Positions 10,435-38,822 of a DNA stretch of 57,363 nt are shown here, piece by piece. Under the pieces are notes generated by a model, which saw only the letters and a program-made list of their open reading frames with translations, searched no databases and was not told where the DNA came from. A program made the position numbers and the translations under genes. Location: IMG/VR virus record IMGVR_UViG_3300043466_002831, positions 1-57,363 of that record; one strand, given 5' to 3'. This DNA comes from a virus. Its lineage: Duplodnaviria > Heunggongvirae > Uroviricota > Caudoviricetes. The first letter of the stretch is position 1, and every line of letters starts with the position of its first letter.

Positions 10435-11035
10435 TATTGAAAAATACGGAAATTTCAAAACAACGGGTAAACAAAAAAAGAAAAGACAAATAATTTTATG
10501 TCATACATCAAGGGAGGTTGAGGAATACTTGACCTCCCTTAAAGTTAGATACAATTCCAAGTATGACAAAATTCCCAACTATATAATCACCAAAGATGGG
10601 AGAATCCTTCAACTACTTCCTGATGAAGGACATTCAAATTTTTTTATGGAATCCAACATAAACCGCAATTCAATAATTGTGTGTTTGGAAAATTTGGGTT
10701 GGTTAGAAAAGAAACCTTTAACTAACTATCATATTAACTGGAAAGGAAGTATTTATAATCAAGAAGTTTACGAAAAAAAATGGAGGGATTTCTTTTTTTG
10801 GGAACCATATTCTGATGAACAAGTTAAATCTACCGCAGAATTGTGTATCCACTTAATAGAAATACTTAACATTAAAAAAAGATGTGTAGGTCACAACACA
10901 AGATTTGAAGGTGTTGAACATTTTGAAGGAATTGTCTCAAAGAGTAATTTCGACGGAAAGTACACTGACTTAAACCCATCTTTTAATTTCGAAAACTTTA
11001 CTAAATTAATAGACAATGGCGAATACACACAATGA
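10427..11035 (+). CDS. N-acetylmuramoyl-L-alanine amidase (Amidase_2-like)
   Basis: IILCHT, PNYIITKDGRILQL, SIIVCLEN, EQVKSTAELC, VGHN motifs. Confidence 0.75.
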   Translation: MLNIEKYGNFKTTGKQKKKRQIILCHTSREVEEYLTSLKVRYNSKYDKIPNYIITKDGRILQLLPDEGHSNFFMESNINRNSIIVCLENLGWLEKKPLTNYHINWKGSIYNQEVYEKKWRDFFFWEPYSDEQVKSTAELCIHLIEILNIKKRCVGHNTRFEGVEHFEGIVSKSNFDGKYTDLNPSFNFENFTKLIDNGEYTQ

Positions 11036-11603
11036 CCGATACGACGAGATTAAGTCGTTATTAAAGAAATCAAGAATGTTGCTTGAGCAAGATACTCAAG
11101 ACAATGTTGCTGCGAGTATTGAACAGAGAATTGACCAAGACCAAGATTATGAAACTGCGGTTAGTAATAGACAACCTGGTGATGATATTGAAGATGGTGA
11201 ACAATCTCCAAAAGATAAAACACAGAAGTATAGAATATCAGGTGGAATCTTAGCATTACATGGTAAGGAAAAGAATGATTTGGATATCACTAGTGATGAG
11301 AAAATTGCTTTCCAAGAAAGTATGGATGAGTTCGTCTCCGAGGTTTCCGATTTGGTTGATTTTGACACATTAAATGTTTACCAAAACAATGTTGATTGGT
11401 CTGGTAAAATCATCGACCAAGATATTGAATTTACATTCACTATTGGTGAAGATAGTGGAATCTACATTAATGGTGAAATGGTTAAAGTTGACGAAGATTT
11501 TTTAGAAATGATTAATAAATTACAACAGTTCTATCAGAAGTTCAAATCCAAATGGGGTAAAGTACTTGCAAGTAGAAAGAAAACAAAAGAATCACCAGAA
11601 TAA
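11016..11603 (+). CDS. acidic hypothetical protein (virion candidate)
   Basis: 195-aa ORF; N-terminal LLKKSRMLLEQ. Confidence 0.7.
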   Translation: MANTHNDRYDEIKSLLKKSRMLLEQDTQDNVAASIEQRIDQDQDYETAVSNRQPGDDIEDGEQSPKDKTQKYRISGGILALHGKEKNDLDITSDEKIAFQESMDEFVSEVSDLVDFDTLNVYQNNVDWSGKIIDQDIEFTFTIGEDSGIYINGEMVKVDEDFLEMINKLQQFYQKFKSKWGKVLASRKKTKESPE

Positions 11604-13590: not shown

Positions 13591-15474
13591 ATGAAAAACT
13601 TTCAAGAAAGCATCGATAATTTAGTATCCAAAATCCTTAATGAGGAAATTGATGCTAAAGTTAAACAAATAATGGAGAACAAAGGTGAGTGGGAAGAGGA
13701 ACTTCATGGTGGTCAATCTAAGATTGATGTTGCAAGTCCTAAAGGTAAAATCACCGCTGCCGATTTTAAAAAATTAAGAGACGCTAAGTCTCACAAGAAA
13801 GAAGTTGAGGAGTATTTTTTAGATGATGACGATTCTGAAGAAGAGGAGGCTGAAGAACTTTCACAAAATGAACCAACTTATGTTGGTAGAGGATTGAGAG
13901 ATAATAAAATTATGTCTAAGTTAAAAAACGCTTTACACTCATATAATGATGAGGACGAGGAAGAATTGGATATTGAAACTGATTGGGCTCAATTAGAGGA
14001 AGATATGGATTTTGAAGACGAAGAGGACATGGAAACTGAATACGATAGTGATGATAGTGATTGGGAAGAAATTGATTTAGACGATGAAACTGATTGGTCT
14101 CAATTAGAAGAAAATGATATGTTTGGTTCATTTGATGATGAACACGGTTGGTTTGACAAAACTGATAGAAAACATTCAGGTGAGTTTGATTTTGATTACG
14201 ATGAGGAAGAATTTGAAGATTTCCCATCATTAATGTCGAAACATGGTAAAAACCAAAGTTGGTTTGGACCAAATGACGGTGAAACTTTTTTTAATAAATA
14301 CAAAGAAAAGTTTGGTGGTAAACCATTCAGAGTTAGAACTGCTAAGAAATTAGAAGAAGATGAAGCTACTGAAGGTAATGCTTTTAGTGGCGCCTTGGCT
14401 CAAGCTAGAAAATCAGGTAAAGATAGTTTTGAGGTTGACGGTAAAGAGTATAAAGTTAATGAATCTGAAGATAAGTGGATTCAAAAAACAGATATGAAAA
14501 AAGGAGCACTACACAAAAAATTAGGTATTCCTGAAGGAGAAAAAATCCCTAAATCAAAATTAAATTCAATTAAAAAAGACTTGATGGCTAAAGCTAAAGG
14601 TGATAAAAAATTGTCTGCAGCTGACTCTAAATTGTTAAAACAAGTTAATATGGCATTAACCTTAGGTGGTTTAAAAGAAAGTAAAAACTCTTTAAAGTTA
14701 ACTGAGAATGAGTTAATTGATATGATTGAGATGATTGTTTTACAAGAGCAAGAAAAAGTTAAAGATTCTGCAGAAAAAAACACATTTACGGTTAATAAAC
14801 CTCAAGGTTTAAAGAAAACTGAAAAAGCTCAAGGTGAAAGTAAAAAAGAGAATGATGACTACACTCAAGAGGTAGTTAAGAAAATGAAAGATTACATGAA
14901 AGATATGTTTTCAGGAGGAAATGGTTATGAAGAAAATCCTGATGATTTCCCTCAAAGTAATTATGACATGGAAAAAGAACATAATGAAATGAAATATCAT
15001 CCATCAGATGCGGTTGAAGAATATATTGAAGCGTTTGCATATCCTGGTATGACAAATCTTGTTTATGATGAGATTAAACCTGAAGATAAAAACATTGAAA
15101 AACAAATCAAAGGTGATTCACAGAATGGTAATGCAGTAACAGGTAAAGATGGTAAAGCACTTGGTAATGTTTCAAAAAGAAGTGAAAAAGTTGGTGAGAG
15201 ATTTAAGAAAAACTTTGATGAGAATTTATATGGCGCGGAACAACAAAAGGCTTCATATAAAAGACAATCACAACCAGTAGATGTTGCGGGTAATGGTAAA
15301 TCAAGTGGGACTTTAAAATCTAAACAACAAGGTGCTGACAAATCAAGTTCGATTAATAAGGCAACTAAAATACTTAACACATTAGAGTCAACTGAAGATA
15401 AAGCAACAAAGGTTATCAAAGAAGACCTTCAAAAAATGATGGGTTTAATTTCTTACAATAGAAAAACTCAATAA
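13591..15474 (+). CDS. large acidic protein (internal virion/scaffold candidate)
   Basis: D/E-rich tract, internal 37-codon repeat ETDWxQLEE; TATTTAT upstream. Confidence 0.7.
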   Translation: MKNFQESIDNLVSKILNEEIDAKVKQIMENKGEWEEELHGGQSKIDVASPKGKITAADFKKLRDAKSHKKEVEEYFLDDDDSEEEEAEELSQNEPTYVGRGLRDNKIMSKLKNALHSYNDEDEEELDIETDWAQLEEDMDFEDEEDMETEYDSDDSDWEEIDLDDETDWSQLEENDMFGSFDDEHGWFDKTDRKHSGEFDFDYDEEEFEDFPSLMSKHGKNQSWFGPNDGETFFNKYKEKFGGKPFRVRTAKKLEEDEATEGNAFSGALAQARKSGKDSFEVDGKEYKVNESEDKWIQKTDMKKGALHKKLGIPEGEKIPKSKLNSIKKDLMAKAKGDKKLSAADSKLLKQVNMALTLGGLKESKNSLKLTENELIDMIEMIVLQEQEKVKDSAEKNTFTVNKPQGLKKTEKAQGESKKENDDYTQEVVKKMKDYMKDMFSGGNGYEENPDDFPQSNYDMEKEHNEMKYHPSDAVEEYIEAFAYPGMTNLVYDEIKPEDKNIEKQIKGDSQNGNAVTGKDGKALGNVSKRSEKVGERFKKNFDENLYGAEQQKASYKRQSQPVDVAGNGKSSGTLKSKQQGADKSSSINKATKILNTLESTEDKATKVIKEDLQKMMGLISYNRKTQ

Positions 15475-21686: not shown

Positions 21687-21718
21687 AAAGGTGGGGGACA
21701 TTTTGTCTCCCATTTTTA
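21687..21718 (+). terminator. intrinsic terminator
   Basis: GTGGGGACA-TTT-TGTCTCCCAT then T-run. Confidence 0.55.
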
Positions 21719-35218: not shown

Positions 35219-36616
35219 ATGAAAAAAATACTCAAAGAGACAGGATTAAGAGATATTAATGCCTTGGCTAAAAGATACCCAAAGGCGGAAATATACTTCC
35301 ACCAAGATTTGGATGGAGTGACGACTGCAATCGCGATGAAAAGGTACCTTGAAGACAATGGTATTGATGTAGTAGGTGCTCACATAATCCAATACGGTGA
35401 CAAAGAATTCTCAGTTAAAAAGAACGATGCACAGGGAGACGTGATGCCAGTTCTTGTGGACTTTGCTCACGGTAAGCCAATGTTCGTAATTCATACTGAC
35501 CACCACGACAAACAAGTTGGTGTGGAAAAAGGAACTTCAAAACAATTTAGAGGTGCACGTTCAAATGTCGAAACTATTTCTCAAGTAGTTTCTCCAAAAG
35601 ATTTATTCCCATCTTCAGATATCTTATTAATCAATACTGTTGATTCTGCCGATTATGCTAAACATGACATTACACCTGATGAGGTGGTTAATTACATTTA
35701 TCGTTTAGATAAAGACAAACCACTCCAAAAAAACAAAATGTTATTAGGTTTGGTTATTAACAAGTTATTGTTGGCGTTTAAAAACAAACCAGGGTTTTTA
35801 GAATCTTTAGTGATGGATTCAGAACCTTCTTTAATGTCTATCTTAAATAATATTAAAGATTGGATGAAAAGAACAAACGCGGCAACTCCTGAAGAAATGC
35901 AGAAAAACGCTGAGGGATATAAAGAAAGTATGAAGAATTATCCAAGAGTCAGTGATAGTATCATTTTCCAATATGGTGGTGGTAGTATGTTCAAACCTGG
36001 TTCTTATGATAGATATACACCATTTAGAAACAATCCTGATGCCGATTTTCTTATCATGGCTTGGCCAATGGGATTAGTTCAAGCATCTTGTAACCCATTC
36101 AAAAAAGAAAGAGAGTTAAAAGGTGTTAACTTGGGTGAAATAGCTCAAGAAGTTGTGGGTAAATGGGAAGACCAATTAAAACAAAGAACAATTCCTTTAT
36201 CAACTATTAAATGGGTAAGTGAAACCTCTGTTGGTCCTGAAAGTATTGGGTTCACATTCAAAGATTTCGAAGCGTTGTATGGGGATAAGTTTACAACTAT
36301 GGAAGGTGGTGAAAAAGTATTGAACCACATTCACGATATGATGGAAACACCATTCAAAGATTTAACTGAAGAACACAAAGAGATGTTAGATAAAATTGGG
36401 ATTAACGCTTGGGATTTAATTCAATCAAATTCAGGTGGACACAAATGTATCACAAACATTTCAGGTTTAAATTATTTAGGTAGAGGTAAAAGACCACCTC
36501 AAGGACAATACAGATATGATTCTGAAAAAGATGACTCACCTTCAGTTAAGTTTACGAAGATGATTGCAAATGAGTTTGAAAAGAAACTTAAAGAAAAGAT
36601 TGCCGAATCAAAATAA
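35219..36616 (+). CDS. DHH-family phosphoesterase
   Basis: FHQDLDG, VDFA, HTDHH, SGGH. Confidence 0.75.
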   Translation: MKKILKETGLRDINALAKRYPKAEIYFHQDLDGVTTAIAMKRYLEDNGIDVVGAHIIQYGDKEFSVKKNDAQGDVMPVLVDFAHGKPMFVIHTDHHDKQVGVEKGTSKQFRGARSNVETISQVVSPKDLFPSSDILLINTVDSADYAKHDITPDEVVNYIYRLDKDKPLQKNKMLLGLVINKLLLAFKNKPGFLESLVMDSEPSLMSILNNIKDWMKRTNAATPEEMQKNAEGYKESMKNYPRVSDSIIFQYGGGSMFKPGSYDRYTPFRNNPDADFLIMAWPMGLVQASCNPFKKERELKGVNLGEIAQEVVGKWEDQLKQRTIPLSTIKWVSETSVGPESIGFTFKDFEALYGDKFTTMEGGEKVLNHIHDMMETPFKDLTEEHKEMLDKIGINAWDLIQSNSGGHKCITNISGLNYLGRGKRPPQGQYRYDSEKDDSPSVKFTKMIANEFEKKLKEKIAESK

Positions 36617-36955
36617 GTACTCAATAGTATCACCAGCTTCGATACCTAAATAATCACAGGTACCACCTTCAAGTTCCAATACTATATTTCCATTTCCACC
36701 GTAACTAGGACATTCATTTCCACGACATGGAGGACAGTCGTGATGAATATTTACAATTACATTATTTCTAATGATTATGATATCCAATGGGATGATACAG
36801 TTTTTCATCCAAAAAGATTGTTTATCACCACCCATCAAAAATAGTAAACCATCAAAAGTAGAATCAAACCTTTTACCCATCATTCCGATTGCTTTTGATT
36901 TTCGGTCTATTAAAGTTTTAACATTAAATATATTGTCGTTGATTCTAACTTGCAT
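36608..36955 (-). CDS. DUF192-family protein
   Basis: GMM..., FWMKNCIIPLDII, VLELEGG. Confidence 0.9.
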   Translation of the reverse strand: MQVRINDNIFNVKTLIDRKSKAIGMMGKRFDSTFDGLLFLMGGDKQSFWMKNCIIPLDIIIIRNNVIVNIHHDCPPCRGNECPSYGGNGNIVLELEGGTCDYLGIEAGDTIEYLF

Positions 36956-37242
36956 ATCTATAAATACAAATAATAGTGGAATATGACTTATTTTAAACTT
37001 TTTTATAAAAAAATTTGACTTTTATTAAGTAATGTAGTACTTTTGTAAGTGTTGGAGATATTTATAGTTTCAGTCAGAAATGACGGACATCCCCAAAAAG
37101 TTTCATAATATATATTTGACAAGATGAGAATTTTGTTTTAACTTTGTGAAACAATTGAGATGAGAGTCTCAAAAAAAAATGTCCCACAGGCATTTGATTA
37201 TTCGAAAAAATAGTTTTATCTTTGTGGGACATTACTTTGAAA

Positions 37243-37253
37243 GTTCTTTAACA
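37243..37253 (+). promoter_or_regulatory. boxA-like antitermination element
   Basis: GTTCTTTAACA versus rrn boxA GCTCTTTAACA; second copy GTTCTTTGAA at 37414. Confidence 0.6.
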
Positions 37254-37263
37254 TAAAATATAT

Positions 37264-37337
37264 CGCGAGGTAGTAGCAGTGGTCAGCTCGTCAGGCTCAT
37301 AACCTGAAGGTCGGAGGTTCGAATCCTTCTCTCGCTA
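37264..37337 (+). tRNA. tRNA-Met(CAT), initiator-like; CCA not encoded
   Basis: CGCGAGG/TCTCGCT acceptor with unpaired C1, anticodon arm TCAGG-CTCATAA-CCTGA, T-arm GGAGG-TTCGAAT-CCTTC. Confidence 0.95.
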
Positions 37338-37400
37338 CTAAACAAAAAAAAGTTTACAAAAGATTTGGAAAATCGAAAAAGTATACTTATCTTTGTAAAA

Positions 37401-38330
37401 CAATTAAGAAAACGTTCTTTGAATTAAAGATATTATCCGTTCAGGAAACACAAAAGTGTCGGTGATATTATCCACCGAGTAAATGGCAGAAAGTCCGCAG
37501 CTTGAGTGTAACTGATAAAGATATTGGGCGGTCTATAGTCCATAAAATAAACCATGAAAGTGGTATAAAGTGAATCATTTGGTTAAGTGGTTTGCGGCTT
37601 TCGAAAGAGAGCTCGAGTAGACAAGCGAGATATCGTTAGACCTTGAGTACCGAGGGTGACACTGTAGGGAAACTGGTTTGATGACCAAGCGATGTGGGTC
37701 GTTTGGTTGAGATGGGAACATCAATAAGAATAACTCGTAGAATTATTACAAGACATACGGTCATCCAACCGTACAATTGTGTGATTCATTACAAGAGTGG
37801 GTTTAAAACCGAAAGGTAAGAGGTCGTACAGGTGGTGCTGTTGTCTCCTTCTTAATTTCTCTACCAAGAGAGTTAGGATGAAACAAACTTGAAGTATGAA
37901 GATAGGGATATCTTAGGGAGTAGTTAAGTATCGTGTCGTTCAAAAGATGACATGGCTTGGTCGGCGAACCGCTACTTTCATCATCCACAACCGCAAACTT
38001 TGTTAATTAAGGTTTAACAACTAAAAGATACAAGGAAAAGCGTTCGCCAGTCGTGATTGACAGGTCACTACATAGTCATGAGATGTTCATGGCCGTAAAG
38101 GGTCCCAAGCCCAATACGATTGTTGTGAAAGTTCTCTAAGTCCGCAAGACCGAATCAGGGTGGCAACCTTGAAGAGCAACGAGTAAAAACAGAGTAGATT
38201 ACGACTTAAGGATTGGTTAATCTAATTGACCGTGACTGAGAATTACTATTCAAAAGATAGTGGAAATCGGAGGAAAAAATAATCTCCTGTAAAGATTCTC
38301 ATACGAAGGTGTATTCTCAACCTGAAGCCA
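37401..38330 (+). ncRNA. giant structured ncRNA, GOLLD-like
   Basis: no credible ORF; own promoter and terminator; many helices; size and tRNA-adjacent phage context match GOLLD RNA; boundaries approximate. Confidence 0.7.
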
Positions 38331-38332
38331 AG

Positions 38333-38367
38333 AACCCCGACAAGAAATTGTTGGGGTTTTTTGTTTT
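38333..38367 (+). terminator. intrinsic terminator ending the large ncRNA
   Basis: AACCCCGACAA-GAAA-TTGTTGGGGTT plus T-run. Confidence 0.85.
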
Positions 38368-38396
38368 ATATCATTTTTTGTATTATCTTTGTTCCC

Positions 38397-38822
38397 ATGA
38401 AAGAGGGAGTCAACATAGTGAACAGAAGAGCGAAGCACGAATACGAGTTCTTGGACACGTATCAAGCGGGTATGGTCTTGACTGGTGTTGAGGTTAAATT
38501 CATTCGTGATGGTAAGTTATCTTTTGTTGATTCTTATTGTATGTTCCATGATGGTGAGTTGTTTATGAAAAATGTATCCATCTCTGGTATTGGTACAGAC
38601 AATATCAAAAGAGACCGTAAGTTGTTACTCAGGAAACGTGAATTGGTTAAACTTCAAAAGAGTTTGGACAAAGGTTTGAGTATTATCCCTTACCGTATTT
38701 ACCAAAAGAAAAACACCCTCAAGGTTGATATCGTTCTTGCTCGTGGTAAAAAATTACATGACAAGAGACAGACCTTGAAGGAAAAGGATATTCAAAAAGA
38801 AATAAGTAGAACATTAAAATAA
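38397..38822 (+). CDS. smpB: SsrA-binding protein SmpB
   Basis: NRRAKHEY, AGMVLTGVEVK, RDRKLLL, LARGKKLHDKR; start moved to 38397, own promoter 38360-38391. Confidence 0.92.
   Translation: MKEGVNIVNRRAKHEYEFLDTYQAGMVLTGVEVKFIRDGKLSFVDSYCMFHDGELFMKNVSISGIGTDNIKRDRKLLLRKRELVKLQKSLDKGLSIIPYRIYQKKNTLKVDIVLARGKKLHDKRQTLKEKDIQKEISRTLK

Follow-up and report, generated by a model that had tools for sequence, protein, structure and literature searches.

An initiator-type tRNA, a GOLLD RNA and smpB in two probable neighbouring transcription units of a freshwater phage genome

Overview of the locus

The locus described here (Table 1) very probably consists of two neighbouring units, one in which a leader drives an initiator-type tRNA together with a giant GOLLD RNA, and another in which smpB is expressed from its own promoter and serves a phage tmRNA located past the break of the contig. 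In the mechanism that we propose, a freshwater Bacteroidota phage of about 290 kb would carry the two units side by side. In the first, host RNA polymerase would fire from four stacked promoters, to which a probable phage promoter is added, and boxA would recruit Nus factors of the host in the manner of rRNA leaders, favouring processive synthesis and folding of the two products, the initiator tRNA and a GOLLD of about 890 nt, up to the terminator. In the second, a promoter dedicated to smpB would give a leaderless mRNA, and the protein would take part in ordinary trans-translation, its partner being a phage tmRNA whose gene lies about 8 kb past the assembly end and possibly the host tmRNA as well. 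The position of smpB would be inherited from a GOLLD-smpB-tmRNA neighbourhood that is still seen in sister lineages. Against this explanation stand the absence of the tmRNA from the assembly itself, the homologous GOLLD-smpB junction of two SmpB lineages, and the fact that in the lineage studied here smpB stayed with GOLLD and not with the tmRNA. The locus is genuine, if for the most part ordinary. For the function of GOLLD, clues from the genomic context count.

The stretch of DNA that was analysed (57,363 nt, hereafter the window) corresponds to the first 57 kb of a linear virus record of 137,752 bp that is estimated to be 47% complete. The GC content of the assembly is 33.5%, and 14 further tRNAs form an array that runs off its far end, the assembly breaking inside this array. 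Two contigs that overlap the assembly end (G064 and G056) encode the ribosomal protein bS21, which is absent from the assembled part of the genome and which points to the freshwater Bacteroidetes phages of 293-331 kb that encode bS21 (PMC9723584). The size estimate, the GC content, the tRNA array and the Bacteroidota promoters are common to both, although bS21 is known here from the overlapping contigs rather than from the assembled part. The main text of PMC9723584 mentions neither GOLLD, tmRNA nor smpB, and no close relative of the phage was found among the GenBank phages searched.

Table 1. Features of the locus and its upstream markers (window coordinates; promoters and terminator are predictions)
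Feature	Position	Strand	Remarks
DHH-family protein	35219-36616		In many relatives, marks the upstream side of the GOLLD site
DUF192 gene	36608-36955		In many relatives, marks the upstream side of the GOLLD site
Promoter P1	37015-37045	+	Bacteroidota sigma-A type, TTG-N20-TAnnTTTG; position conserved in relatives
TATTTAT	37059-37065	+	Putative phage-specific promoter motif; enriched before ORF starts; kept in relatives
Promoter P2	37116-37146	+	TTG-N20-TAnnTTTG; pattern match
Promoter P3	37194-37224	+	TTG-N20-TAnnTTTG; pattern match
boxA-like element before tRNA	37243-37254	+	GTTCTTTAACAT; varies among relatives, pattern absent in L011, L012, L014 and L016
tRNA-Met(CAT), initiator type	37264-37337	+	C1xU72 mismatch; anticodon stem au/GC/GC
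Promoter P4	37365-37395	+	TTG-N20-TAnnTTTG; between tRNA and GOLLD; conserved in relatives
boxA-like element before GOLLD	37414-37425	+	GTTCTTTGAATT; conserved in lake-type GOLLDs; motif common to host 16S leaders
GOLLD RNA, about 890 nt	37432-38323	+	5' end inferred; 3' domain 37916-38323 matches RF02032
Intrinsic terminator	38330-38361	+	14-pair stem and T tail, ends the GOLLD unit; sequence prediction
Promoter P5	38361-38391	+	Host type, smpB's own; kept in both smpB lineages
smpB, 141 aa	38397-38822	+	ATG start; PF01668 match

Promoters and the rRNA-style leader

An earlier note on this DNA had pointed to four host-type promoters with equal 20-nt spacers within about 380 bp. They are found as described, with a span of 381 bp, although the spacers are alike in length alone, and 20 nt is the modal spacer genome-wide (31 of 55). 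In 5000 dinucleotide shuffles of the region, the mean number of such promoters was 0.02 and the maximum was 2, compared with the four observed, and P1-P4 form the densest 400-bp promoter cluster of the 138-kb assembly, in which no other 400-bp stretch has as many. A scan with sigma-70 promoters was uninformative, as this is the wrong promoter type for this DNA. Amid the host-type stack lies TATTTAT, a motif with 97 copies in the genome, 25 of them within 12 nt of an ORF start, where about one would be expected; it is found 201-209 nt before the tRNA in eight of eight relatives, which suggests that the copy at 37059 is an additional, phage-specific promoter. All of the elements that had been listed earlier are present, but the list had overlooked this motif as well as the terminator and the fifth promoter.

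The boxA-like elements that follow the third and fourth promoters, which had been likened to those of rrn leaders, are also present. Both lie 18 nt downstream of a -7 box, and the two motifs together were recovered in none of 5000 shuffles. The same pattern occurs within 600 nt upstream of 16S in 18 of 24 Bacteroidota and in none of 23 control windows located further upstream, while two to three stacked promoters were observed in six of the 24 16S leaders. In nearly every lake-type GOLLD with enough flanking sequence, a boxA is located at a distance of about 810-920 nt from the 3' end of the RNA, on the upstream side. Two phage tRNA clusters and the tmRNA genes of relatives are likewise preceded by it and, given its presence before tRNA clusters, tmRNAs and GOLLDs, the motif is a general leader for the stable RNAs of this phage family. 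The view that an rRNA-style leader precedes the tRNA and GOLLD is thus supported at the level of predicted signals, and the distribution of the motif shows that lake-type GOLLDs are predicted to be transcribed with a leader signal common to host rRNA, phage tRNA and phage tmRNA genes. We found no paper on a boxA-led GOLLD in the literature searched.

The resemblance to the rRNA operon leaders of Bacteroidota comprises the promoter consensus and the GTTCTTT[AG]A box. The phage locus differs in that it contains no rRNA, is divided into two short units, has a promoter between the tRNA and GOLLD, and leaves smpB outside the leader-driven unit. By analogy, the leader suggests Nus-assisted synthesis of stable RNA, the Nus dependence of boxA leaders being something that we infer from work on rrnTAC (PMC10250234). 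An RNA-chaperone role has also been proposed for rrnTAC (PMC10250234), and it is conceivable, if rather unlikely, that boxA in the phage is a signal for processing or folding instead of antitermination, or that the stacked promoters serve different infection stages instead of a high output. The units are short (less than 1.3 kb), the boxA before the tRNA has been lost in some relatives, and a phage-type motif lies amid the host promoters, all of which would fit such a role, whereas the identity of the motif and its position after a promoter match those of host rRNA leaders. This alternative differs only in the purpose of Nus recruitment and does not conflict with the remainder of the two-unit explanation.

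Elsewhere in the genome, we observed two short ORFs with terminator hairpins directly before promoter-boxA-tRNA clusters (L152, about 10980-11140 and 14680-14860, corresponding to genome positions of about 132980-133140 and 136680-136860), which resemble leader-peptide attenuators.

The products of the first unit

The tRNA had been described as an initiator, and this assignment is borne out, with the anticodon stem in a variant form. A 1:72 mismatch is kept in the relatives inspected, the D-arm of the window tRNA has one extra U, and CCA is not encoded. The stem lacks the three G-C pairs at 29-31:39-41; the au/GC/GC form found instead occurs naturally in alphaproteobacteria and in some mycoplasmas, and is somewhat impaired in E. 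coli (PMC5389676). In some of the loci L230, L278, L280, L281, L327 and L101, the initiator tRNA is found just after GOLLD and not before it, while in others it is absent.

The assignment of the large RNA to GOLLD is based on its 3' domain, which matches the whole Rfam model RF02032 (positions 1-416) with 327 bits against a cut-off of 150. In the 5' domain, 67 of the 108 predicted pairs present compensatory changes among 20 homologues, and the fold has a z-score of -3.3. The phage context near tRNA genes also holds, as the sequence comes from a virus record and tRNA-Met lies 95 nt upstream. Four freshwater RNA studies yielded contigs that tile 37432-38333, among them near-identical pieces of the 5' variant found in this lineage; such RNA-library contigs show presence, and not level or strand. 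smpB is barely covered by them, and no contig bridging GOLLD and smpB was seen among the matches listed, which has no bearing on expression or co-transcription. Indeed, the RNA runs were picked for holding the stretch and their depths sum over relatives, so they were not used as evidence of either.

The GOLLD of env-38, an RNA of 833 nt for which a Met-tRNA upstream has already been stated, forms a D7 14-mer RNA-only cage according to cryo-EM (bioRxiv 10.1101/2024.12.08.627333). The RNA in the window is alike in exceeding 800 nt, in lying downstream of a Met-tRNA, and in combining the full 416-position 3' model with a structured 5' domain; it is longer (about 890 nt) and has an insert of about 65 nt near its 5' end, the two RNAs having been compared by description. 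By analogy, the window GOLLD probably assembles into a similar RNA-only cage. The insert (37446-37512) is lineage-specific, lies in the first GOLLD stem and contains several small hairpins, unlike the hairpin found in close relatives.

It had also been remarked that the large RNA lacks a T-arm and a CCA end, and we reached the same result. The tmRNA model RF00023 gave no signal over 37400-38330 even at an E value of 10, neither a T-arm nor a CCA end was found on inspection, and the only GTTCAA sits in a GOLLD hairpin loop. By these measures, GOLLD is an RNA without a tRNA-like domain.

smpB as a probable separate unit

The proposal that smpB belongs to a single antiterminated module together with GOLLD fails, given that a predicted terminator and, after it, a promoter dedicated to smpB lie between the two genes; the split is read from the DNA alone. 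A hairpin with a T tail at the GOLLD end is kept in relatives despite different stem sequences, and the order of terminator, promoter and ATG is the same in two SmpB lineages that are about 50% identical. As the -7 box spans -12 to -5 (PMC9723704), the predicted start of P5 is at about 38396, within a base or two of the smpB ATG, and smpB mRNA is probably leaderless.

The encoded protein matches PF01668 over its full length with 153 bits (cut-off 27). Its C-terminal tail is intact (GKK, G117-K118-K119; DKR, D122-K123-R124), it keeps 27 of 31 host-conserved columns in addition to the ribosome-binding tail, and dN/dS values of 0.02-0.09 indicate strong purifying selection. The central loop has 17 residues, compared with 22 in 26 Bacteroidota hosts, and the Y..G..NH motif has been lost. 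Loss of the central loop is known in Carsonella, Hodgkinia and hemoplasmas, and the window SmpB presents a milder form of it; a short central loop is thus a variant feature that does not exclude a protein from the SmpB family (PMC4131195). Phage smpB and tmRNA have already been published for huge phages (PMC7162821), and the window phage resembles these systems in having an intact SmpB under purifying selection and, in the overlapping contigs, a one-piece tmRNA whose tag frame ends in hydrophobic or Ala residues. It differs from them in the large distance between smpB and the tmRNA gene and in a central loop with five residues fewer than that of hosts. The loop-shortened phage SmpB offers a natural variant for probing the role of the central loop. 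In another contig (L192:5-424), an SmpB combines a long-loop N-terminal part with a tail matching the window clade, and might be a recombinant or come from a chimeric contig.

The missing tmRNA

The earlier note saw no tmRNA in the window, and this holds for the window and for the whole assembly. ARAGORN found none with default settings or at -ps90, and at -ps80 it gave scattered low-score calls without Rfam support; the RF00023 matches in the assembly are tRNA T-arms below the cut-off; and no match came from a profile built on 22 phage tmRNAs. Taken by itself, ARAGORN tests this poorly, as it recovered 11 of the 22 phage tmRNAs at -ps90; it also missed the tmRNA of G054. The best RF00023 match (25 bits) is a tRNA-Ala(TGC) with G3-U70 and an unusual D-arm (genome 134937-135012, in L001), which was considered as a tmRNA remnant and ruled out by its normal anticodon arm.

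A tmRNA encoded elsewhere had been named as a possible partner of SmpB, and the overlapping contigs make this likely. G064 overlaps the last ~690 nt of the assembly at 96-99% identity, with an overlap that is partly tRNA and contains an indel of about 110 nt, and it carries, 8.4 kb further on and on the opposite strand, a one-piece tmRNA (86.7 bits) preceded by a promoter and a boxA of its own. In G054 (41.9 kb collinear, 80.5%) and G056 (10.8 kb, 83.8%), a tmRNA is found at the same place, and their identity of 80-84% is at the level of the smpB-GOLLD relatives G001 and G002. Of 50 records that bear smpB, four are complete phages; each of these has a tmRNA match, three of them over the cut-off and one with 45.6 of the 47 bits required, while GOLLD is present in two of the four. 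In the closest clade, in which all contigs are fragments, no contig has both smpB and a tmRNA. A tmRNA beyond the contig break is a strong inference from a short and partly tRNA overlap, and the most likely partner of SmpB would be such a phage tmRNA just past the broken end. A tmRNA that default ARAGORN misses and that lies past the contig break would explain the apparently lone smpB and remove a tempting false lead.

The phage tmRNAs themselves (G064:57091-57487 and L224-L234) have a tag frame of about 21 residues that ends in VAA or VTA, and most of them are missed by default ARAGORN.

Is the adjacency of GOLLD and smpB conserved?

GOLLD and smpB lie side by side in several lineages, with a homologous spacer between them, yet this adjacency is not required. 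Seen from smpB, GOLLD is found 73-76 nt upstream throughout the window clade, down to 68% identity, and the same spacing occurs in a second clade with the order GOLLD, smpB and convergent tmRNA; the junction is homologous in the two SmpB lineages, about 50% identical, and is located at two genomic sites. Seen from GOLLD, in 80 loci that were picked by the GOLLD motif regardless of smpB and were not dereplicated, smpB occupies 3 of the 21 slots of the window type that are fully visible, and 1 of 11 GOLLD-tmRNA intervals. For example, L265 has a 94% identical GOLLD 3' domain and the slot without smpB, and in close relatives one or two inserted ORFs separate GOLLD from smpB. Among 45 records chosen by length, a set that leaves out four loci already known to hold smpB, GOLLD was found in 40 and smpB in 2, at distances of 13 and 39 kb. 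The base of the SmpB tree has too little resolution to show a single origin of the adjacency. The simplest reading of these arrangements is that smpB is an optional gene of a GOLLD-tmRNA neighbourhood, which would have been carried with GOLLD when the neighbourhood was rearranged.

The earlier note suggested, as one option, that SmpB might partner the giant RNA. A repurposing of the loop-shortened SmpB for binding to GOLLD could draw on the immediate adjacency in the window lineage, the altered central loop, the strong purifying selection and the lack of a tmRNA in the assembled 138 kb. We consider it highly unlikely. GOLLD lacks a tRNA-like domain and is in most cases found without smpB, the cage seen by cryo-EM is made of RNA only (bioRxiv 10.1101/2024.12.08.627333), and short-loop SmpBs are found without GOLLD nearby (for instance, in L022, with a tmRNA 4.3 kb away); in addition, the protein retains its host-conserved columns and ribosome-binding tail, and a tmRNA is present in the overlapping contigs.

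A broader partnership, in which GOLLD would belong to a ribosome-control set with tmRNA and SmpB and the leader, the linkage at two sites and the remodelled loop would reflect a real functional or physical association, seems improbable, but if true it would give GOLLD its first defined partner in the trans-translation genes. Distinctly improbable, in our opinion, is the looser version in which GOLLD binds or stores ribosomes or tRNAs, trans-translation works alongside without direct SmpB-GOLLD binding, and the linkage is kept by selection and not just by inheritance. GOLLD-smpB-convergent tmRNA clusters occur in a dozen records, GOLLD and a convergent tmRNA lie within 0.3-3.3 kb of each other in 11 motif-picked loci, a boxA leader is common to all these RNA genes, and ribosomes are reported to bind GOLLD in pull-downs, as cited in bioRxiv 10.1101/2024.12.08.627333. 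However, relatedness among these loci, which were not dereplicated, means that they do not count as independent events; the tmRNA would be about 108 kb from the window's GOLLD site; neither smpB nor a tmRNA was found in any of eight near-complete GOLLD phages, all of other groups; and the longest complementarity between GOLLD and tmRNA is 9 nt, on which ground antisense pairing between the two RNAs was rejected. The explanation with two neighbouring units and an inherited position of smpB remains our preferred one. We found no paper on a linkage between GOLLD and tmRNA in the literature searched.

Putative leaderless phage mRNAs

The arrangement of P5 and smpB has counterparts elsewhere in the genome. 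Of the 55 host-type promoter matches found genome-wide, 11 are followed by an ORF start at 4-7 nt from the -7 box, compared with 0.3 expected, and 18 TATTTAT motifs have an ORF start 4-5 nt downstream; examples of such sites are window positions 21703, 29016 and 38361 and genome positions 60709, 108466 and 131445. Many phage mRNAs thus look leaderless, judging from predicted signals, whereas in a Flavobacterium host leaderless mRNAs amount to 5.5% (PMC9723704). Widespread leaderless mRNAs may be a reason for the phage to keep an initiator tRNA.
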